A stretch of DNA of 64,000 nt, from NCBI RefSeq assembly GCF_055900595.2, contig NZ_CM148325.1; one strand, written 5' to 3'. The translations under genes were made by a program, and so were the position numbers. Shown one piece after another: positions 3,226 through 64,000 of the stretch; position 1 is the first letter of the stretch; each line of letters begins with the position of its first letter. The notes under the pieces are model-generated. The model did no database searches. It was not told where the DNA came from and saw only the letters and a program-made list of their open reading frames with translations.

Positions 3226-3293
3226 GTAGAGGTTTTACTGCTCATTTTCATCAGACAATCTGTGTGAGCACTGCAAAGCACAGTTCTTTCAGG

Positions 3294-4835
<1,542 letters not shown>

Positions 4836-4959
4836 AAAAGTTTGATGCTCAAAGAATTAAACTTCGTAATGAATTACGTGTTCACTCTTGAGACTTGGTA
4901 TTCATTTTTCGTCTTGCGACGTTAAGAATCCGTATCTTCGAGTGCCCACACAGATTGTC

Positions 4960-4979
4960 TGATAAATTGTTAAAGAGCA
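4960..4979 (-). promoter_or_regulatory. rrn leader boxA antitermination element
   Basis: Minus strand reads TGCTCTTTAACAATTTATCA, the canonical rrn boxA, about 125 nt upstream of the mature 16S 5' end. Confidence 0.75.
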
Positions 4980-5019
4980 GTTGCGACGCGGCTTTCAGCT
5001 CACTGTCGCGAGGTGGCGT

Positions 5020-5047
5020 ATATTACGCTTTCCTCTTTCAGAGTCAA
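5020..5047 (-). promoter_or_regulatory. rrnH P2 promoter (sigma-70)
   Basis: Minus strand TTGACT - 16 nt - TAATAT, about 185 nt upstream of the 16S 5' end; matches rrn P2 architecture. Confidence 0.65.
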
Positions 5048-5129
5048 CCCTGAATTTCAGGATTTTTCTCTTCAACCGAACCGGCTGTTTGTGTGAAGTG
5101 ATTCACATCCGCCGTGTCGATGGAGGCGC

Positions 5130-5157
5130 ATTATAGGGAGTCGTTTCAGGAAGACAA
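5130..5157 (-). promoter_or_regulatory. rrnH P1 promoter (sigma-70) with GC-rich discriminator; AT-rich UP-element region continues to about 5200
   Basis: Minus strand TTGTCT - 16 nt - TATAAT followed by GCGCC discriminator; AT-rich tract (5160-5200) upstream in the transcription sense. Confidence 0.7.
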
Positions 5158-5200
5158 GCGGAAAAATGCATTTTTATTTCAACCGCTCATCTTTTAATCA

Positions 5201-5773
5201 TTACGCCGGTTTTTGCTGCTTTTTTATCGCTTGCGGCAGGTCTGCCAGGCTATTTAACACCCAATCCGCCGCGTTTTCTGCTTCAGGCGTAATAGGTTTT
5301 CCCGTACGCACCAGCACTTTTGTTCCCACGTTCGCCGCAGCCGCTGCCTGCATATCTTCTAATTTATCGCCCACCATATAAGAAGCGGCCATATCAATAT
5401 GCAAATAATCGCGTGCTGACAAAAGCATCCCCGGATGTGGTTTGCGGCAGTCGCAGACCTGGCGAAACTCTTCAACACTACCCTGCGGATGATGCGGGCA
5501 ATAATAGATACCATCCAGATCGACATCGCGGTCCGCCAGCGACCAGTCCATCCACTCGGTCAGCGTTTCAAACTGTGCTTCAGTAAATTTACCGCGAGCA
5601 ATGCCAGACTGGTTGGTTACTACCACCAGCGCAAAGCCCATTTTTTTTAGCTCGCGCATGGCGTCAATGACACCGTCGATAAATTCAAAGTTGTCGATCT
5701 CATGGACATAGCCGTGATCGACATTAATGGTGCCATCACGGTCAAGAAAAATTGCGGGTACGCTCTTCGCCAC
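5201..5773 (-). CDS. gmhB: D-glycero-beta-D-manno-heptose-1,7-bisphosphate 7-phosphatase (HAD family)
   Basis: 190-aa ORF; HAD motif DRDGT near N-terminus; sits immediately upstream of the rrn promoters as in K-12. Confidence 0.93.
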
Positions 5774-58796: not shown

Positions 58797-60992
58797 TTAG
58801 AAACGGAAGGTTGCGGTTGCAACGACCTGACGTTCTGCGCCCCAGTAACATGCATAATCACGATAGCAACTGGAGACATATTCGCGGTCGAACAGGTTAT
58901 TTACGTTAACACCAACAGAAGAACCAGGCATACCGAAACGAGCAAGATCATATTTTATCATTGCATCAACCAAGGTATACCCCCCAACATTGAATGTCTG
59001 ATTGGTCTTATCACCCGTAGTGTAGAAACTTGAGGTGTCGCCAAAATAACGTGCCCCTGCACCAAGACTCAGACCACTAAGAGCTGTTTCGTGGAAAGTG
59101 TAATCTGCCCACAGCGAAGCCATATTTCGGGGGACCTCTGCCGGGCGTTTACCCTTGTACAATGTATCTTTGGTGTATTCAGCATCGGTGTAGCTGTATG
59201 CCGCAGTCACATTGATATTAGCGTTGACAGCTGCTTTAGCCTCAATCTCAAAGCCACGAGAACGAATCTCCCCCCCTTGTACGCTAAACAAAGTATTACT
59301 TGGATCTGCAGTCAGATTTTTGTCTTTCGTTAATTGGAATACCGAGGCAGTGACAGTGACAGGCGTATCTTTTGGTACGTATTTGACACCTGCTTCGTAC
59401 TGCTTACCGCGAGAAGGATCAAACGGTTTACCTTCTTTAGTCGCTCCAGATACTGGCTCGAAGGATTCGCTATAACTGAAATAAGGTGAAATACCATTAT
59501 CGAACAGATAATTAATACCACCTCTCCAGGTGAACTGCTGATCGTTAATTTCATCCAAAGAACTCGTTGAACGAGTATAGGTAGAGGTTTTCGCAAAATC
59601 GTAACGACCACCCAGCGTCAATACCCACTTATTCCACTCAGACTGATCCTGAATATAAAGGCCTGTCTGTTCCTGACGGTTAATTACCGCATATGGGAAA
59701 TTGATATTGATATTGGCGTTACCGTACTGTGGATCCGTCATGCTAATCGGATTAGCAGTACCATAGTTTGCATCAATATCGTTACGCATTCGCAGGTAAT
59801 CCACGCCAGTAAGCAAAGTATGCGCTACAGCACCGGTAGCAAAGTTGGACTGTAGTTGCGTATCAACAGTAAACGAATTTAAATCTTCGTCTGAACGTAC
59901 ATAAGCACGGCTAATTTGCGCTGGCGCGATGTAACCATTGCCATATACTGCATCGTAGAGTGTATGAATGCGGGTATAGCGCAGATTCTGACGTACAGTA
60001 AAAGTATCATTAAATTCATGAGCAAAACTGTAGCCAATTAATTGTTGACGACGAGACATCTTATTATCTTTCTCGCCTTCATTGAAATCTGTTGGCAATT
60101 TGTGCCAGCTACCATTTGCATCCTGATAGGGAACAACAGTTCCCTGGCGCGGTAACCAACCATAATAGCCCGCATCGGGATCACTCTGGAAATTACTCAG
60201 GAAAGTGAAATCCGTTTTATCATCAGGACGCCAACTGAATGAGGGAGCAACTGCATACCTTGTAGTTTTTGCGTACTTTTGTTGCGCATCCTGACTACGT
60301 CCTAATCCCGTCAAACGATATGACCAAACGCCATCATCATCTATTGCATCACTAAAATCGAATCCGGTCTGCCAAAGATTATCCGTTCCCATTTTGAACT
60401 GGATCTCTTTAATCGGATCCGTTGAAGGCCGTTTGCTTACCATGCTCACTACTCCGCCCGGATGGCTTTTACCATACAGTACGGATACTGGGCCACGGAG
60501 TAATTCCACACGCTCAAGGAAATAAGGATCAATAGAGGCTTCAGAGTAGTTATCCCCCTGAAGTTTTAAGCCATCCAGATATTGGTTAGTATTTACTGTA
60601 CTGGCTGTAGTAAATCCACGTATAGAAACAACATCATACGTTGTTGAACTACCACGCGTTGAAAAGACACTTGGCGTATAATCCAGAGCTTCTTTTACCG
60701 TTGCGGGTTGTTTGATATCCATCTCTTCCCGGGTCACAACCGAAATAGACTGCGGCGTTTTTTCAATTGGTGTATCCGTTTTAGTCGCAGTAGCAGAGTG
60801 CTTCGCCGCAATAGTTGCAGCTGGCCCCCATGCGCTTTCTTGCGGCGCTGGTGCAGCGGTAACGGTGATAGTGTCTTCTTTCGGTTCAACCGCTGCCTGT
60901 GCATAAACAGACATGCCGCTAACCGCTGTGGCTACTACAACTGCGATTTTACGCAGTGAGTGTTTTGGCTGAGCAGTTTTGGAACGCGCCAT
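58797..60992 (-). CDS. fhuA: TonB-dependent ferrichrome outer-membrane transporter FhuA, divergent mosaic allele
   Basis: 731-aa ORF. The first ~62 residues (signal peptide, TonB-box DTITV) and last ~11 residues (AERQVVATATFRF) match K-12 FhuA as I recall it; the interior is clearly homologous but heavily substituted and 16 aa shorter, and its DNA is AT-rich. Confidence 0.9.
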   Translation of the reverse strand: MARSKTAQPKHSLRKIAVVVATAVSGMSVYAQAAVEPKEDTITVTAAPAPQESAWGPAATIAAKHSATATKTDTPIEKTPQSISVVTREEMDIKQPATVKEALDYTPSVFSTRGSSTTYDVVSIRGFTTASTVNTNQYLDGLKLQGDNYSEASIDPYFLERVELLRGPVSVLYGKSHPGGVVSMVSKRPSTDPIKEIQFKMGTDNLWQTGFDFSDAIDDDGVWSYRLTGLGRSQDAQQKYAKTTRYAVAPSFSWRPDDKTDFTFLSNFQSDPDAGYYGWLPRQGTVVPYQDANGSWHKLPTDFNEGEKDNKMSRRQQLIGYSFAHEFNDTFTVRQNLRYTRIHTLYDAVYGNGYIAPAQISRAYVRSDEDLNSFTVDTQLQSNFATGAVAHTLLTGVDYLRMRNDIDANYGTANPISMTDPQYGNANININFPYAVINRQEQTGLYIQDQSEWNKWVLTLGGRYDFAKTSTYTRSTSSLDEINDQQFTWRGGINYLFDNGISPYFSYSESFEPVSGATKEGKPFDPSRGKQYEAGVKYVPKDTPVTVTASVFQLTKDKNLTADPSNTLFSVQGGEIRSRGFEIEAKAAVNANINVTAAYSYTDAEYTKDTLYKGKRPAEVPRNMASLWADYTFHETALSGLSLGAGARYFGDTSSFYTTGDKTNQTFNVGGYTLVDAMIKYDLARFGMPGSSVGVNVNNLFDREYVSSCYRDYACYWGAERQVVATATFRF

Positions 60993-61014
60993 TGGTATAT
61001 CTCTGATGTAAAGT

Positions 61015-61065
61015 GAATGATAACGTAAACGAGAATGATTATTATAAAGATGAGATAATATTCGA
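61015..61065 (-). promoter_or_regulatory. Fur-box region in the fhuA promoter
   Basis: Clustered GATAAT-type hexamers (TGATAACG, GAGAATGATTATTATAA, GATAATATT) 25-75 nt upstream of the fhuA start. Confidence 0.55.
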
Positions 61066-61171
61066 AACGCTGGCGGGTTCGCAAGCGGTACGCAATCTGA
61101 GCATTCCTGAGGGGTTAATAAACAATCAGATGAAAAGAAAGGGTTAATACTTTGGGTAGGATGTTATTTTA

Positions 61172-61194
61172 CCGGATGGCGACTCGCCATCCGG
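61172..61194. other. Palindrome downstream of mrcB
   Basis: CCGGATGGCG-A-CTCGCCATCCGG 10-bp inverted repeat; no U tract in the mrcB transcript sense. Confidence 0.35.
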
Positions 61195-61211
61195 TATGTC
61201 ACGCTTAGACG

Positions 61212-63746
61212 TTAATTACTACCAAACATATCCTTGATCCAACCTGCTACGCCGTCACTGTCTTTCTGCTCTTGCTGAGCAGGTTGCTGTTGCGGTTGTT
61301 GCTGCGGCTGAGAAGACTGATCAAACGGATTGCCTGACGGTTGCTGCTGAATCTCACTCTGCTGGCACAGCGATTGCGGATCGCTGGTCCAGACCGGCAA
61401 GACACGCATGCCACCGCTGCAGACAAAGTTGCCGTCGTAGTCCACGCCCATATCTGCAATATCTTCTGGTGGAACAAGATTCAGCGGTGTTGGTGTCTGG
61501 TTAGCCAGATAACGCTGATAAATCGACATTGCCCCACTGGCACCATACAGTTTGGTCGGCTGGTTGTTATCACGGCCTACCCAGGTGATGGTCACCGTGC
61601 TGCCGTCAATGCCCGCAAACCAGGTATCCACGTTGTTGTTGGTAGTCCCGGTTTTGCCCGCCAGATGCAGGTTCGGGTATTTCGCCCCAAGCTGACGACC
61701 CGTACCGCGTTGTACCACCTGCTGCATGGTCCATAGTGTCAGATACGCCGCCTGCGCCGGAACCGCGCGTTCCGCCTGCGGGAAGCTCTGATACAACACC
61801 TTGCCATCTTCCGCGATTACCGAACGCAGCGCAGAAAGCGGTGCTCGGTTACCACCGCTGGCGATGGTCTGGAACGCCTGCGCCACTTCAATTGGCGTTA
61901 AGTTCAACGCCCCCAGCAGCATTGCCGGAACCGGATGCAGCTGATCTTTCGGTACGCCCAGTTTAATCCAGGTATCCGTAACCGCAGGCAGCCCCAGCGC
62001 CATCCCCAGATTTACCGTCGGCACGTTCATCGAACGAGTCAACGCATCCACCAGCATCACTCTGCCACTTTCGCTATAACGACGATCATCGTTCTGCGGT
62101 GACCAGACCTGGCCATTCGGCTGACGCAGCGCGATTGGCGCATCGGCAATCCACGTGTTCAGGCGATAGATTTTCGGCTGGCTTAAGGCCGTCAGATAAG
62201 TCGCTGGTTTTGCAAGGGAACCAATCGAACGACGCGCCTGCATCGCACGGTTGTAACCTGCAAACTGCGGCTCAGAACCACCAACCATCGCACGAACTTC
62301 ACCACTAAAGCGGTCGACGACCACAATTGCCGTTTCCAGATCGCTTAACTTACGCTGTTTCTTCAGTGCCGGAATGCCTTCCACGGCGGCTTTTTCCGCC
62401 GCGTCCTGAGCCACCGAGTCAAAGGTAGTGAAGATCTTCACGCCGGAGAGATCTTTTACCTTATCGCCTAATTTCGCCTGCAGCTCCTGACGCACCAGTT
62501 GCATAAAGGCTGGCTGTGGAGAGATTACCCCACCACGCGGCTGAACCCCCAGCGGACGTGCACTCAACATGTCATAGAGCTCTTGATCAATAATCTGCTG
62601 TTGTTGCAGCAGACGCAGCACCAGGTTACGTCGCTCCAGCGCCAGTTTCGGGTTACGCCACGGGTTGTAGATGGACGCTCCTTTCACCATACCAACCAAC
62701 AGCGCCTGCTGGTCGAGACTCAGCTCTTCTACCGGGCGACCAAAGTAGTACAGGCTCGCCAGCGGGAAACCGCGGATTTCGTTGTCGCCGCTCTGACCGA
62801 GATACACCTCGTTCATATACAGCTCAAGAATGCGGTCTTTGCTGTAACGCGCATCCATGATCAGCGCCATGTAGGCTTCGTTCGCTTTACGCCAGTAAGA
62901 ACGTTCGCTGGAGAGGAACAGGTTTTTCACCAACTGTTGCGTCAGCGTACTCGCCCCCTGTACCGTGCGTCCGGCGGTCAGGTTTGCCAGCACCGCACGT
63001 CCGATGGAGTAGAGACTGATCCCATCATGCTCGTAGAAATGACGGTCTTCTGTCGCCAGCAAAGTATCCACCAGCAAATCCGGGAAACCACTGCGCGGCA
63101 CAAACAAACGCTGCTCACCGTTTGGCGAAGAGATCATGGTGATCAGACGCGGATCAAGACGGAAGAAACCAAACTGACGGTTGTTCTCCATATTGACGAT
63201 CGTCGACAGGTGATCGCCATCAAAGGTCAGACGCGCACGCACCTGCCCTTCTTTACTGTCCGGGAAATCAAACGGACGGCGGATCATCTCAATGCTGTTG
63301 GCCTGCACGGTAAATTCGCCAGGACGGGTCATTTTTGACACCTGACGATACTGGGTCGCCTCCAGCAGCTTCACCATCTCGTTCTTGCTGATGGTCATGT
63401 CTGGCTCAAGGTTGACCATTCGGCCATAAACAGCCGCAGGCAATTGCCAGACTTTGCCATCAATACGGCTACGAATTTTTTGATCGAGATAAACACCGTA
63501 AATGGCGATCAGCACGGCAAAAACGATAGCCAGTTTTAGCAGCAGCCATAGCCAGCCGCGTTTGCCACGAGGCTTACGCCCTTTGCCTTTGCCCTTACCT
63601 TTGCGCGGCATCGGTTCTTCATCCTCATAGTCATCATAATCGTCGTAATCATCGTCATCTTCGTAACGACGACGGCTTACCTTTTGTTTGACCGGACGCG
63701 TCGGTTTCCCTTTGCGTCCAATTGGCTCGCGGTCATTCCCGGCCAT
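61212..63746 (-). CDS. mrcB: Penicillin-binding protein 1B (bifunctional glycosyltransferase/transpeptidase)
   Basis: ORF track 61212..63761; start placed at [14 protein letters not shown] (844 aa); acidic/basic cytoplasmic tail, TM helix, transpeptidase motifs, Gln-rich C-terminus. Confidence 0.95.
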
Positions 63747-63839
63747 GCTTTTTCTCCGCAATATTCAGGCGCAAAAGCCCGATTTTCTGTTCTTCTGTAA
63801 CAAGACAGAAGAAGATATCTCTCAAATTTACTTTGGTCT

Positions 63840-64000
63840 TCATGAATACTTTTTCGTCCGTCGCGTCGGTGCGGTATTTGCCGGATCATCCGGCCAGACG
63901 TGTTTGGGATAACGCCCTTTCATCTCTTTTTGCACATCGCGATACGCTCCTTTCCAGAAGGCGCTCAAATCTCGTGTGATTTGCAGCGGCCTTTGGGCAG
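63840..64000 (-). CDS. hrpB: Probable 3' end of ATP-dependent RNA helicase gene hrpB (partial, enters from window edge)
   Basis: Minus-strand frame open for 53 codons from the window edge to a TGA at 63840-63842 (…[29 protein letters not shown]); hrpB precedes mrcB in K-12. The exact stop is uncertain: the spacing to mrcB differs from what I recall. Confidence 0.5.

Follow-up and report, generated by a model that had tools for sequence, protein, structure and literature searches.

The mrcB gene, the disordered tails of its product, and the internal start codon at Met46 have been known since the 1980s, and the two-start feature of this gene is well documented. Ribo-RET experiments in Escherichia coli K-12 and BL21 revealed an internal initiation site in mrcB (bioRxiv 10.1101/520783), and the same mrcB proteoform pair was found by Ribo-RET in S. 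Typhimurium (PMC11005335). Functional work on the alpha and gamma isoforms has been done in K-12, and the M46L substitution serves to make alpha alone as a stable protein (PMC13423804). According to the same 2026 paper, PBP1b is brought to the division site by the N-terminal peptide unique to alpha, with FtsA as the probable partner.

Internal in-frame starts also yield N-terminal proteoform pairs from other bacterial genes, such as infB and clpB and the Ribo-RET set of Meydan et al. Genes of this type resemble mrcB in that one mRNA carries two in-frame starts, each led by a Shine-Dalgarno sequence, and the shorter isoform is missing an N-terminal module. As in these genes, the mrcB proteoform pair is conserved in Salmonella. 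However, the module removed in mrcB is a disordered cytoplasmic targeting peptide and spacer of a membrane protein rather than a folded domain, and its internal Shine-Dalgarno core is built from codons for acidic residues.

Two other proteins of peptidoglycan synthesis offer a comparison for the opposite end of PBP1b. Bacillus subtilis PBP1 and E. coli PBP1b both have an extracytoplasmic, compositionally biased C-terminal tail that is not needed for catalysis, and the disordered region of the B. subtilis protein, which is poorly conserved in sequence, reportedly acts by virtue of being disordered (Brunet et al. 2022, PMC9732909). E. coli FtsN has a Q-rich periplasmic linker at residues 129-225 (PMC7939390), and shares with PBP1b a Gln-rich unstructured periplasmic segment that links functional elements. 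The FtsN linker joins a helix region to the folded SPOR domain, whereas the PBP1b linker runs from the transpeptidase domain to a terminal peptide of a few residues.

The window, which is the entire 64,000-nucleotide stretch of DNA that was analyzed, carries the mrcB (ponB) coding sequence on the minus strand at 61212..63746, with the ATG at 63746-63744 and the TAA at 61214-61212. The open reading frame and its translation, together with NCBIfam, Pfam, and RefSeq, define a gene of 844 codons plus TAA that encodes PBP1b alpha. An earlier reading of the letters alone (hereafter the initial annotation) had named the gene mrcB, and the features it described are all in the sequence, but it left the minus strand unsaid. 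We required the whole-protein profile score to exceed the curated equivalog cut-off for membership in the PBP1b family, and the 844-amino-acid translation scores 1733.6 bits with the NCBIfam model PRK09506 (cut-off 1120) and 1248.6 bits with TIGR02071 PBP_1b (cut-off 717.75). Matches to Pfam domains occur in the order PBP1_TM (residues 1-79), UB2H (113-197), Transgly (209-379), and Transpeptidase (473-714). The transmembrane anchor is placed at residues ~65-87 (63486..63554, minus strand) based on the PBP1_TM match and a 23-residue hydrophobic run, from which we infer its exact boundaries.

For evolutionary comparisons, we aligned the protein with those of 80 other Enterobacteriaceae species, yielding 81 sequences that are not phylogenetically independent. 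Residues E233, E290, S510, K513, S572, N574, and K698-T699-G700 are present in the window protein and invariant in this alignment. We take these, as established PBP1b knowledge, to be the GT residues Glu233 and Glu290 and the TP motifs Ser510-x-x-Lys513, Ser572-x-Asn574, and Lys698-Thr-Gly700. The structures 3VMA, 3FWL, and 5FGZ/5HL9 match residues 53/55/58-804 with E = 0. All PDB constructs span this range, and the 58-804 form has been called a “functional truncation” (PMC12279963), so the tails are dispensable for folding and catalysis. RefSeq annotates mrcB from the same ATG in a strain with 100% identity. The gene is therefore the standard E. coli mrcB, encoding the bifunctional peptidoglycan synthase PBP1b.

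K-12 PBP1b (UniProt P02919) differs from the window protein at four of 844 amino acids (A181S, E591D, I782V, and M799I, the last of which falls in the C-terminal tail), with 96.5% nucleotide identity. The first 198 nucleotides are identical, both tails are of equal length, and the two loci share their flanking genes, with hrpB on the upstream side and fhuA on the downstream side. Because nucleotides 1-198 are identical, the K-12 experiments apply to the window allele. K-12 has a 102-bp G-rich palindromic insert between hrpB and mrcB that the window lacks, and the window allele is uncommon, since only 8 of 5,424 genomes have at least 99% identity over the region. On the downstream side, a hairpin with a 12-bp stem (61170..61196, minus strand) begins 15 nucleotides after the stop codon and lacks a U tract on the strand that encodes mrcB; the 65-nucleotide segment containing it folds at -24.4 kcal/mol. 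An Rfam search at E <= 1 gave no match in 60900-64000, and a scan for promoter and terminator consensus sequences produced counts no better than those of shuffled sequences, with nothing upstream of mrcB.

The alpha start is preceded by a GGAG Shine-Dalgarno core (63754..63757, minus strand) located 7 nucleotides before the ATG at 63746. Its duplex with the 16S 3′ end is computed at -6.6 kcal/mol, and the motif is unchanged in all Escherichia compared, namely 12 strains of E. coli, E. albertii, and two others. The gamma start is the ATG of codon 46 (63609..63611, minus strand), identified through aligned-codon conservation and the published Ribo-RET peaks, and Met46 is the sole Met between residues 1 and 110. 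A GAGGA Shine-Dalgarno-like core (63622..63626, minus strand) lies 10 nucleotides before this codon, with a predicted duplex of -6.1 kcal/mol, and it is formed by GAG-GAT, a Glu-Asp codon pair in the acidic stretch. In the minimum-energy mRNA fold, the region around the internal start is left unpaired, and it is no more structured than shuffled sequences (z = 0.28). The initial annotation had equated an in-frame Met at codon 46 with the start of the known shorter isoform. The codon is where it was said to be, at 63611-63609, and the equation is borne out by the GAGGA core, the published K-12 Ribo-RET data, and the identity to K-12 over the first 198 nucleotides. An initiation signal thus exists at the internal Met, the absence of which the initial annotation had named as refuting its proposal. 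Initiation at Met46 and the function of the N-terminal peptide are themselves derived from the literature rather than from this sequence analysis, which contributes the anatomy, the conservation, the polymorphism, and the Shine-Dalgarno signal.

Among the 80 other species, the aligned codon 46 is ATG in 65 and GTG in seven, and it is lost in eight, where it reads GCG, GCC, CGT, or ACG. Because these eight species lack a start at the aligned codon, the gamma isoform is dispensable in some lineages, and the start falls short of being universal. Of the 73 sequences that keep a start (72 species plus the window), 71 have a Shine-Dalgarno core 4-13 nucleotides upstream, versus 47.8 of 73 expected from synonymous resampling. 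This expectation corresponds to a chance level of ~65% for GAGG-like motifs in acidic codon runs, and five of the eight species without the start still have one. We considered the exclusive use of GTG in the seven valine replacements as evidence for a retained start, but gave it no weight, since a single nucleotide change can turn ATG into a valine codon only by way of GTG.

Two other accounts of the N terminus were weighed against this arrangement. The open reading frame assigned mechanically opens with a TTG (MRRKSM…; 63759..63761, minus strand), and, if translation truly began there, the protein would have 849 amino acids. TTG is a permitted start in bacteria, and the frame is open from this codon. 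However, the TTG at 63761 has no Shine-Dalgarno sequence upstream (pairing of -2.5 kcal/mol versus -6.6 for ATG1) and directly adjoins, or overlaps, the 5′ side of the GGAG that serves ATG1. Moreover, RefSeq annotates ATG1, Met1 (MAGNDRE) is where the profiles of NCBIfam and Pfam start to match, and all 80 species begin with MAG(N/D)DREPIGRK from an ATG. A start at the TTG therefore has a negligible chance of being real, and the initial annotation was right that the mechanical start (63761-63759) is five codons too far upstream. The other account holds that the shorter PBP1b arises by proteolytic loss of the N-terminal 45 residues, with Met46 being incidental. Precedent exists in the beta form of PBP1b, a proteolytic product of alpha that has been reported as an OmpT artefact, and the eight species without a start codon at the aligned position would also fit. 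Yet proteolysis does not account for the ribosomes seen initiating inside mrcB in both E. coli and Salmonella, for the stable alpha-only protein obtained with M46L (PMC13423804), or for the conserved Shine-Dalgarno core upstream of codon 46. The GTG found at all seven valine replacements is likewise still a start codon, but also the only one-step route to valine. We consider proteolysis to be a very improbable source of the shorter form, and internal initiation at Met46 is the explanation used below.

The N-terminal tail has three parts that differ in charge, with net values of +8 for residues 1-27, -13 for residues 28-45, and +10 for residues 46-64. It begins with a conserved 14-residue peptide found only in alpha (residues 1-14; 63705..63746, minus strand). 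Within it, M1, A2, G3, D5, R6, E7, P8, I9, G10, R11, and K12 are invariant in the 81 Enterobacteriaceae sequences, forming an invariant 12-residue peptide ahead of a variable low-complexity spacer. The 18-residue acidic spacer (residues 28-45; 63612..63665, minus strand) holds the internal Shine-Dalgarno core, and its codons form a 9/18-nucleotide tandem repeat (TRF array 63619-63666). The 19-residue basic juxtamembrane segment (residues 46-64; 63555..63611, minus strand) includes a 6-nucleotide KG repeat (TRF array 63580-63604). This composition is extreme, as neither the 13 D/E in 18 residues nor the 16 K/R/G in 18 was reached in any of 5,000 protein shuffles. The three-part charge pattern is kept across the 80 species, among which the length of the acidic spacer varies.

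The initial annotation had described this tail as acidic and then basic. Its two peptides map to residues 28-45 (18 residues) and 48-64 (17 residues), so that both stretches stand, but the leading basic segment at residues 1-27 was missed. It is this first basic segment, overlooked earlier, that carries the functional N-terminal peptide.

At the other end of the protein, a Gln/Pro-rich linker (residues 795-829; 61260..61364, minus strand) follows the last Cys (C794), and we take it and the remainder of the C-terminal tail to be periplasmic from the known topology of PBP1b. The linker contains a conserved GNPF motif (61323-61334) and a 12-nucleotide repeat (TRF array 61282-61307). The 28-residue Gln/Pro-rich peptide quoted by the initial annotation corresponds to residues 800-827, where Q occupies 14 of the 28 positions and Q+P together occupy 19, a bias reached by none of 5,000 protein shuffles. 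Across species, the tail from ~residue 796 to the end measures 45-58 residues with a mean Q+P content of 43%, and N806 and F808 are invariant in the 81 sequences.

The protein closes with a 15-residue terminal peptide (residues 830-844; 61215..61259, minus strand). Residues D831, G832, V833, A834, G835, W836, I837, K838, M840, F841, and G842 are invariant in the 81 sequences, giving an invariant 12-residue peptide behind the variable linker, and an 11-residue form is kept in more divergent PBP1b fragments that have a plain Q-run linker. Thus, the termini do contain the low-complexity stretches reported by the initial annotation, but neither is purely low-complexity because both tails end in invariant peptides. 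All residues after 804, including the terminal peptide, are missing from every crystallized construct. A literature search with a broad query on the function of the PBP1b C-terminal tail found no study of the C-terminal peptide. A profile of the tail searched against 1.84 billion representatives returned 24 matches, all eight that were inspected being short C-terminal fragments of PBP1b; full-length representatives are absent among the matches, so taxonomic reach is not mappable from them. From this search, the motif appears to be in no other protein family. We also considered an amphipathic helix for the terminal peptide, which is not supported, as 799 of 5,000 shuffles reach its hydrophobic moment. 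An AlphaFold2 model of full-length PBP1b built with the 81-sequence Enterobacteriaceae alignment (mean pLDDT 34, pTM 0.22) is too poor to address docking.

Residues 795-844 resemble the disordered region of B. subtilis PBP1 in being C-terminal, extracytoplasmic, compositionally biased, and outside the folded domains. Unlike that region, the enterobacterial tail is ~50 residues long, is Q/P-rich, and has an invariant 12-residue end, and the poor conservation reported for the B. subtilis region is not seen in the last 12-14 residues, which are invariant in 81 sequences. A short Q/P-rich tail that ends in an invariant 12-residue peptide hints at a leash carrying a motif for specific docking.

We then evaluated variation within the species by using 5,424 complete E. 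coli genomes. Tail-length alleles, whose counts were approximated from BLAST identity bands, include a one-Asp deletion in the acidic spacer (179 genomes, 3.3%), a Lys-Gly deletion in the basic segment (132 genomes, 2.4%), and a Gln-Gln-Pro (three-codon) or, rarely, a four-codon deletion in the C-terminal tail (up to ~16% of genomes). The tails therefore vary among strains, whereas it was identity of the tails in all strains that the initial annotation had said would count against it. These indels are whole in-frame repeat units, and the TRF arrays lie exactly where the indels occur. Against this background, the first 198 nucleotides of mrcB are unusually invariant at the nucleotide level within Escherichia. 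Identity of at least 99% over this segment is found in 94% of the 5,424 genomes, compared with 41% and 35% for the next two 198-nucleotide segments. Synonymous divergence (pS) from E. albertii amounts to 0.07 for codons 1-66 but ~0.32 for the other codons. The effect fades in comparisons with Salmonella and Citrobacter (0.31-0.35 in codons 1-66 against roughly 0.5-0.6 elsewhere), and it is absent with Enterobacter and Klebsiella. The conserved block extends from ~75 nucleotides upstream to near the TM-coding region and coincides with the two initiation regions.

These patterns admit explanations that require no function for the tails or for the conserved block. If only the catalytic core mattered, the low-complexity tails might be functionless, slippage-prone filler that drifts neutrally, as could be argued from the catalytic competence of residues 58-804 in vitro and from linkers that differ in length and sequence from strain to strain and from genus to genus. 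Neutral drift is harder to reconcile with the charge pattern kept in 80 species, the maintained Q/P composition and length of the C-terminal tail, the invariant peptides at both tail ends, and the single N-tail allele present in 94% of E. coli genomes. Furthermore, the alpha-specific tail has a demonstrated role at the division site (PMC13423804), and we judge the neutral explanation to be unlikely. A recent recombinational spread or sweep, rather than selection on the RNA or on initiation, is a more substantial contender for the near-invariance of the 198-nucleotide segment in Escherichia, to which we assign a real but minority chance. Its appeal lies in an effect that is strongest within the genus and fades with distance, and in the otherwise rare mrcB allele of the window, which reveals mosaicism in the region. 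Opposing it are the match between the conserved block and the extent of the two initiation regions and the invariance across all phylogroups sampled. In addition, Eyre-Walker and Bulmer are said to have described in 1993 a general reduction of synonymous change at enterobacterial gene starts.

The gene identity and the two-start model meet no contradicting evidence among the results obtained, and we are highly confident in the reading as a whole, in which one mRNA has two in-frame starts and encodes disordered tails of variable length. Initiation at ATG1, with GGAG 7 nucleotides upstream, produces the 844-residue alpha form with a cytoplasmic tail of 64 residues. Initiation at ATG46 with its GAGGA core produces gamma, which keeps only the basic juxtamembrane segment of the N-terminal tail. 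In alpha, the acidic and basic stretches may serve as a flexible spacer that holds residues 1-14 away from the membrane, and these residues, as published, direct alpha-PBP1b to the site of division, with FtsA probably mediating. The C-terminal tail would be a flexible Gln/Pro linker of variable length ending in an invariant peptide, for which any role is conjectural. The DNA that encodes both tails consists of short tandem repeats whose units are gained or lost in frame, with replication slippage being the most likely source of the indels. Strains would thereby come to differ in length at low frequency, and genera to a greater extent.

For genome scans, this locus offers the lesson that the mechanical start of the mrcB open reading frame is off by five codons and that the gene is on the minus strand. 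Three by-products may each merit a small follow-up: the low synonymous diversity over the two-start region, the set of E. coli alleles that differ in tail length while staying in frame, and the invariant C-terminal peptide, which is routinely deleted in in vitro work and appears to be unstudied. More speculatively, and with somewhat greater doubt than we attach to the sweep, PBP1b might bear a short linear motif on a tether at both termini, known at the N terminus and possible at the C terminus on a Gln/Pro leash; separately, the synonymous sites frozen in Escherichia from nucleotide -75 to +198 might mark an RNA element that sets the alpha:gamma ratio. If true, the C-terminal peptide could dock a partner or PBP1b’s own domains, and its reach could be tuned when strains lengthen or shorten the leash, as ST131-type alleles do through the QQP deletion.

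The gene at 63746..61212 on the minus strand, an orientation that the initial annotation left unstated, is mrcB (ponB), which encodes PBP1b in 844 uninterrupted codons ending with TAA. Its product matches the NCBIfam equivalog PRK09506 (1733.6 bits) and TIGR02071, PBP_1b (1248.6 bits), carries the Pfam domains PBP1_TM, UB2H, Transgly, and Transpeptidase in that order, and has all the PBP1b catalytic residues in place (E233, E290, S510, K513, S572, N574, and K698-T-G700). The structures 3VMA, 3FWL, and 5FGZ/5HL9 match residues 53/55/58-804, and the gene sits between upstream hrpB and downstream fhuA, the arrangement found in E. coli. The open reading frame track indeed begins five codons upstream of the accepted start, at a TTG (63761-63759). 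This codon lies immediately 5' of the GGAG (63757-63754) serving the real ATG and lacks Shine-Dalgarno pairing of its own, and the protein starts at the ATG, with MAG(N/D)DREPIGRK, in RefSeq and in all 80 related species. A 279-amino-acid open reading frame antisense within mrcB (62499-63338, plus strand), for which we found no support, most likely stays open by chance on the strand opposite a long gene.

The compositional extremes noted for the two tails of the protein are present. An acidic run spans residues 28-45 (net charge -13), a basic run residues 46-64 (net +10), and a Gln/Pro-rich stretch residues 800-827, and the tail densities of D/E, K/R/G, Q, and Q+P were not reached in any of 5000 shuffled versions of the protein. 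The description of the cytoplasmic N tail as acidic then basic holds for these two runs, but it missed the basic segment that precedes them (residues 1-27, net +8); the charge order is basic, then acidic, then basic. In 81 sequences (80 Enterobacteriaceae species plus the window), M1, A2, G3, D5, R6, E7, P8, I9, G10, R11, and K12 are invariant, which agrees with the reported conservation of the first ~14 residues of PBP1b in Enterobacteriaceae (PMC13423804). The same study (Nat Microbiol 2026) found enrichment and activity at the division site only for the alpha isoform, which starts at Met1, with recruitment relying on the N-terminal peptide, in which R6 is key, and probably proceeding via FtsA. 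The acidic and basic runs differ among species in length and sequence and keep their charge pattern. The most economical reading is that these low-complexity runs would act as a flexible charged spacer between the targeting peptide and the membrane.

The in-frame Met proposed as the known start of the shorter (gamma) isoform is encoded at 63611-63609 (codon 46) and is the sole Met between residues 1 and 110. The ribosome profiling of initiation sites suggested as a check has already been published: in E. coli, Ribo-RET revealed the initiation site inside mrcB (bioRxiv 10.1101/520783). Likewise, the same pair of proteoforms was observed in S. Typhimurium, where the extension is 42 residues long (PMC11005335), in agreement with our alignment, which places the Salmonella Met at residue 43. 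Because mrcB nucleotides 1-198 are the same in the window and in K-12, these initiation data transfer directly. The proposed role of Met46 is further upheld by a Shine-Dalgarno core, GAGGA (63626-63622, minus strand), which is built from the Glu-Asp codons GAG-GAT of the acidic run and precedes ATG46 with 10-nucleotide spacing. Its predicted pairing with the 16S rRNA 3' end is -6.1 kcal/mol, versus -6.6 for ATG1. The 81 nucleotides around ATG46 have no more structure than shuffled sequences (z = 0.28), with the core and AUG unpaired in the predicted fold.

Met46 was found in 12 of 12 E. coli sequences examined. Among the 80 Enterobacteriaceae species, which were retrieved from a genome collection, 65 have ATG at the aligned codon and 7 have GTG (Silvania, Leclercia, Kosakonia cowanii, and Klebsiella pneumoniae and relatives), whereas the start is lost in 8 (GCG, GCC, CGT, or ACG; e.g., Kluyvera, Pseudescherichia, and Phytobacter). 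A Shine-Dalgarno core lies 4-13 nucleotides 5' of the start in 71 of 73 start-keeping sequences (window counted), versus 47.8 expected from synonymous-codon resampling, and in 5 of the 8 species without the start, which is close to chance level. This excess backs a functional internal start as supportive evidence only, because the species are not independent. Two records stood apart in these comparisons. The mrcB gene of “Escherichia sp. ESNIH1” (PQKR01000006.1) has only 85% identity and, like Pseudescherichia, is without the Met46 codon. A record titled “Chryseobacterium sp. 18061” (CACSKA010000010.1) carries an enterobacterial mrcB (85% identity), pointing to contamination or mislabelling.

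The region of the two starts is also unusually uniform at the nucleotide level. Of 2535 mrcB sites, 89 differ between the window and K-12, none of them within the first 198, and nucleotide diversity among 12 strains is 0.0034 in nucleotides 1-198, versus 0.019-0.035 in nucleotides 199-600 and 0.05 in the 3' end of hrpB. Nucleotides 1-198 and ~75 nucleotides upstream of the ATG (63549-63820, minus strand) form a block that is nearly invariant within Escherichia. Nucleotides 1-198 have at least 99% identity to K-12 in 94% of 5424 complete E. coli genomes, compared to 41% and 35% for the next two 198-nucleotide segments. Synonymous divergence from E. albertii is 0.07 in codons 1-66 and ~0.32 elsewhere; this contrast is less marked in comparisons with Salmonella and Citrobacter and disappears in those with Enterobacter, Klebsiella, and Buttiauxella. 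One candidate explanation is selection on both initiation regions, on top of the generally reduced synonymous change at the beginning of genes that Eyre-Walker and Bulmer reportedly described in 1993. The other candidate is a short recombinational sweep inside the genus.

Positions 61100-64000 are 96.1% identical to a K-12-type strain (96.5% for the mrcB coding sequence alone, with four amino acid differences, none in the N tail). This hrpB-mrcB segment is a rare allele, with at least 99% identity in 8 of 5424 genomes and ~96% in most, and the sole 100% match seen was E. coli Z0117EC0005 (dog, South Korea). The region looks mosaic because the 5' 198 nucleotides of mrcB are the common allele while the segment is the rare one. 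Two minus-strand hairpins, TTCTTCTGT-cttgtt-ACAGAAGAA (63790-63813) and TCGGGC-ttttgc-GCCTGA (63765-63782), occupy the interval from the hrpB stop to the mrcB start, in a 71-nucleotide segment whose predicted folding surpasses that of shuffled sequences (z = -2.66). In E. coli, the first has an invariant stem and a variable loop (TTGTTAC, TTGTAAC, TTGCAAC, TTGTCAC). Candidate roles are an hrpB terminator, an mrcB leader, or an operator. K-12 and many other strains carry ~102 extra bases here (between window positions 63839 and 63820; 462-563 in locus L001 of the K-12-derived strain PG20180062), making the intergenic distance 195 nucleotides in K-12 and 93 in the window. This insert is missing from the window, ST131, and others; it forms an imperfect, G-rich palindrome (…CTCCCTGTGGGAGAGGGCCGGGGTGAGGGC…) and resembles a boxC-type repeat.

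Downstream, a hairpin with a perfect 12-bp stem, TACCGGATGGCGA-g-TCGCCATCCGGTA (61170-61196), begins 15 nucleotides past the mrcB stop, in a 65-nucleotide segment that folds at -24.4 kcal/mol; a terminator scan did not call it because the mrcB strand has no U tract there. Read by eye, an AT-rich region upstream of fhuA (61017-61084; fhuA at 58797-60992, minus strand) has hexamers that look promoter-like on either strand, as well as a stretch, GAGAATGATTATTATAAAGATGAGATAATATT, that looks like a putative Fur-box region. In PG20180062, an O16:H48 mouse-gut isolate, the annotation marks fhuA as a pseudogene that contains an internal stop (L001 3411-3603). In strains EC32 and ST131 (3230-5589 in loci L008 and L009), fhuA does not directly follow mrcB, and a fimbrial protein, chaperone, and usher cluster adjoins it downstream instead.

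Tail repeat lengths vary among strains, rather than being identical in all of them. Tandem Repeats Finder places arrays exactly in the tail-coding DNA, with periods of 9/18 (63619-63666), 6 (63580-63604), and 12 (61282-61307). For the N tail, 5089 of 5424 genomes (93.8%) are within 1% of the window/K-12 allele, 179 (3.3%) have a one-Asp deletion, and 132 (2.4%) have lost one Lys-Gly unit, where these and the following allele numbers derive from BLAST identity bands and are approximate genotype counts only. Both deletions were seen in one strain, LR14. The C tail has less than 95% identity to the window in 877 genomes (16%), and the ST131-type Gln-Gln-Pro deletion allele was counted in 566 (10.4%); sampled rows of the 877 show a 9-nucleotide deletion, or 12 nucleotides (four codons) in one strain, AR_0369. 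Each of these indels preserves the reading frame and deletes entire repeat units, as would be expected of replication slippage.

The periplasmic C tail begins after the last conserved Cys, C794, and from about residue 796 comprises 45-58 residues across species. Its order is a Gln/Pro-rich stretch, a conserved GNPF(D/N)QS motif in which N806 and F808 are invariant, another Q/P run whose length varies, and an invariant end, D831-G-V-A-G-W-I-K838-x-M-F-G842. A profile search of 1.84 billion representatives returned only 24 matches, and the 8 inspected were all PBP1b C-terminal fragments. Some of these are divergent, with a plain poly-Q linker and the conserved 11-residue terminal peptide still present. 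Because such fragments keep the peptide, the C tail is, as judged from sequence, more than low complexity and would consist of a leash plus a conserved terminal peptide. The peptide is not notably amphipathic, and an AlphaFold model made to see whether it docks on the core gave a pLDDT of 34. The 58-804 construct used in all structural and most biochemical work on PBP1b is without this tail (PMC12279963, PMC7939390), and our literature search found no study of it. Its nearest analogues are FtsN-type Q-rich periplasmic linkers and the disordered C-terminal region of B. subtilis PBP1, for which a role in directing the enzyme to wall gaps has been proposed (PMC9732909); the PBP1b tail differs from the latter by its invariant end.

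The mrcB observation is thus confirmed and its interpretation supported, and the feature itself is already known. Some residual novelty lies only in the invariant C-terminal peptide and in the nucleotide-level conservation of the dual-start region.
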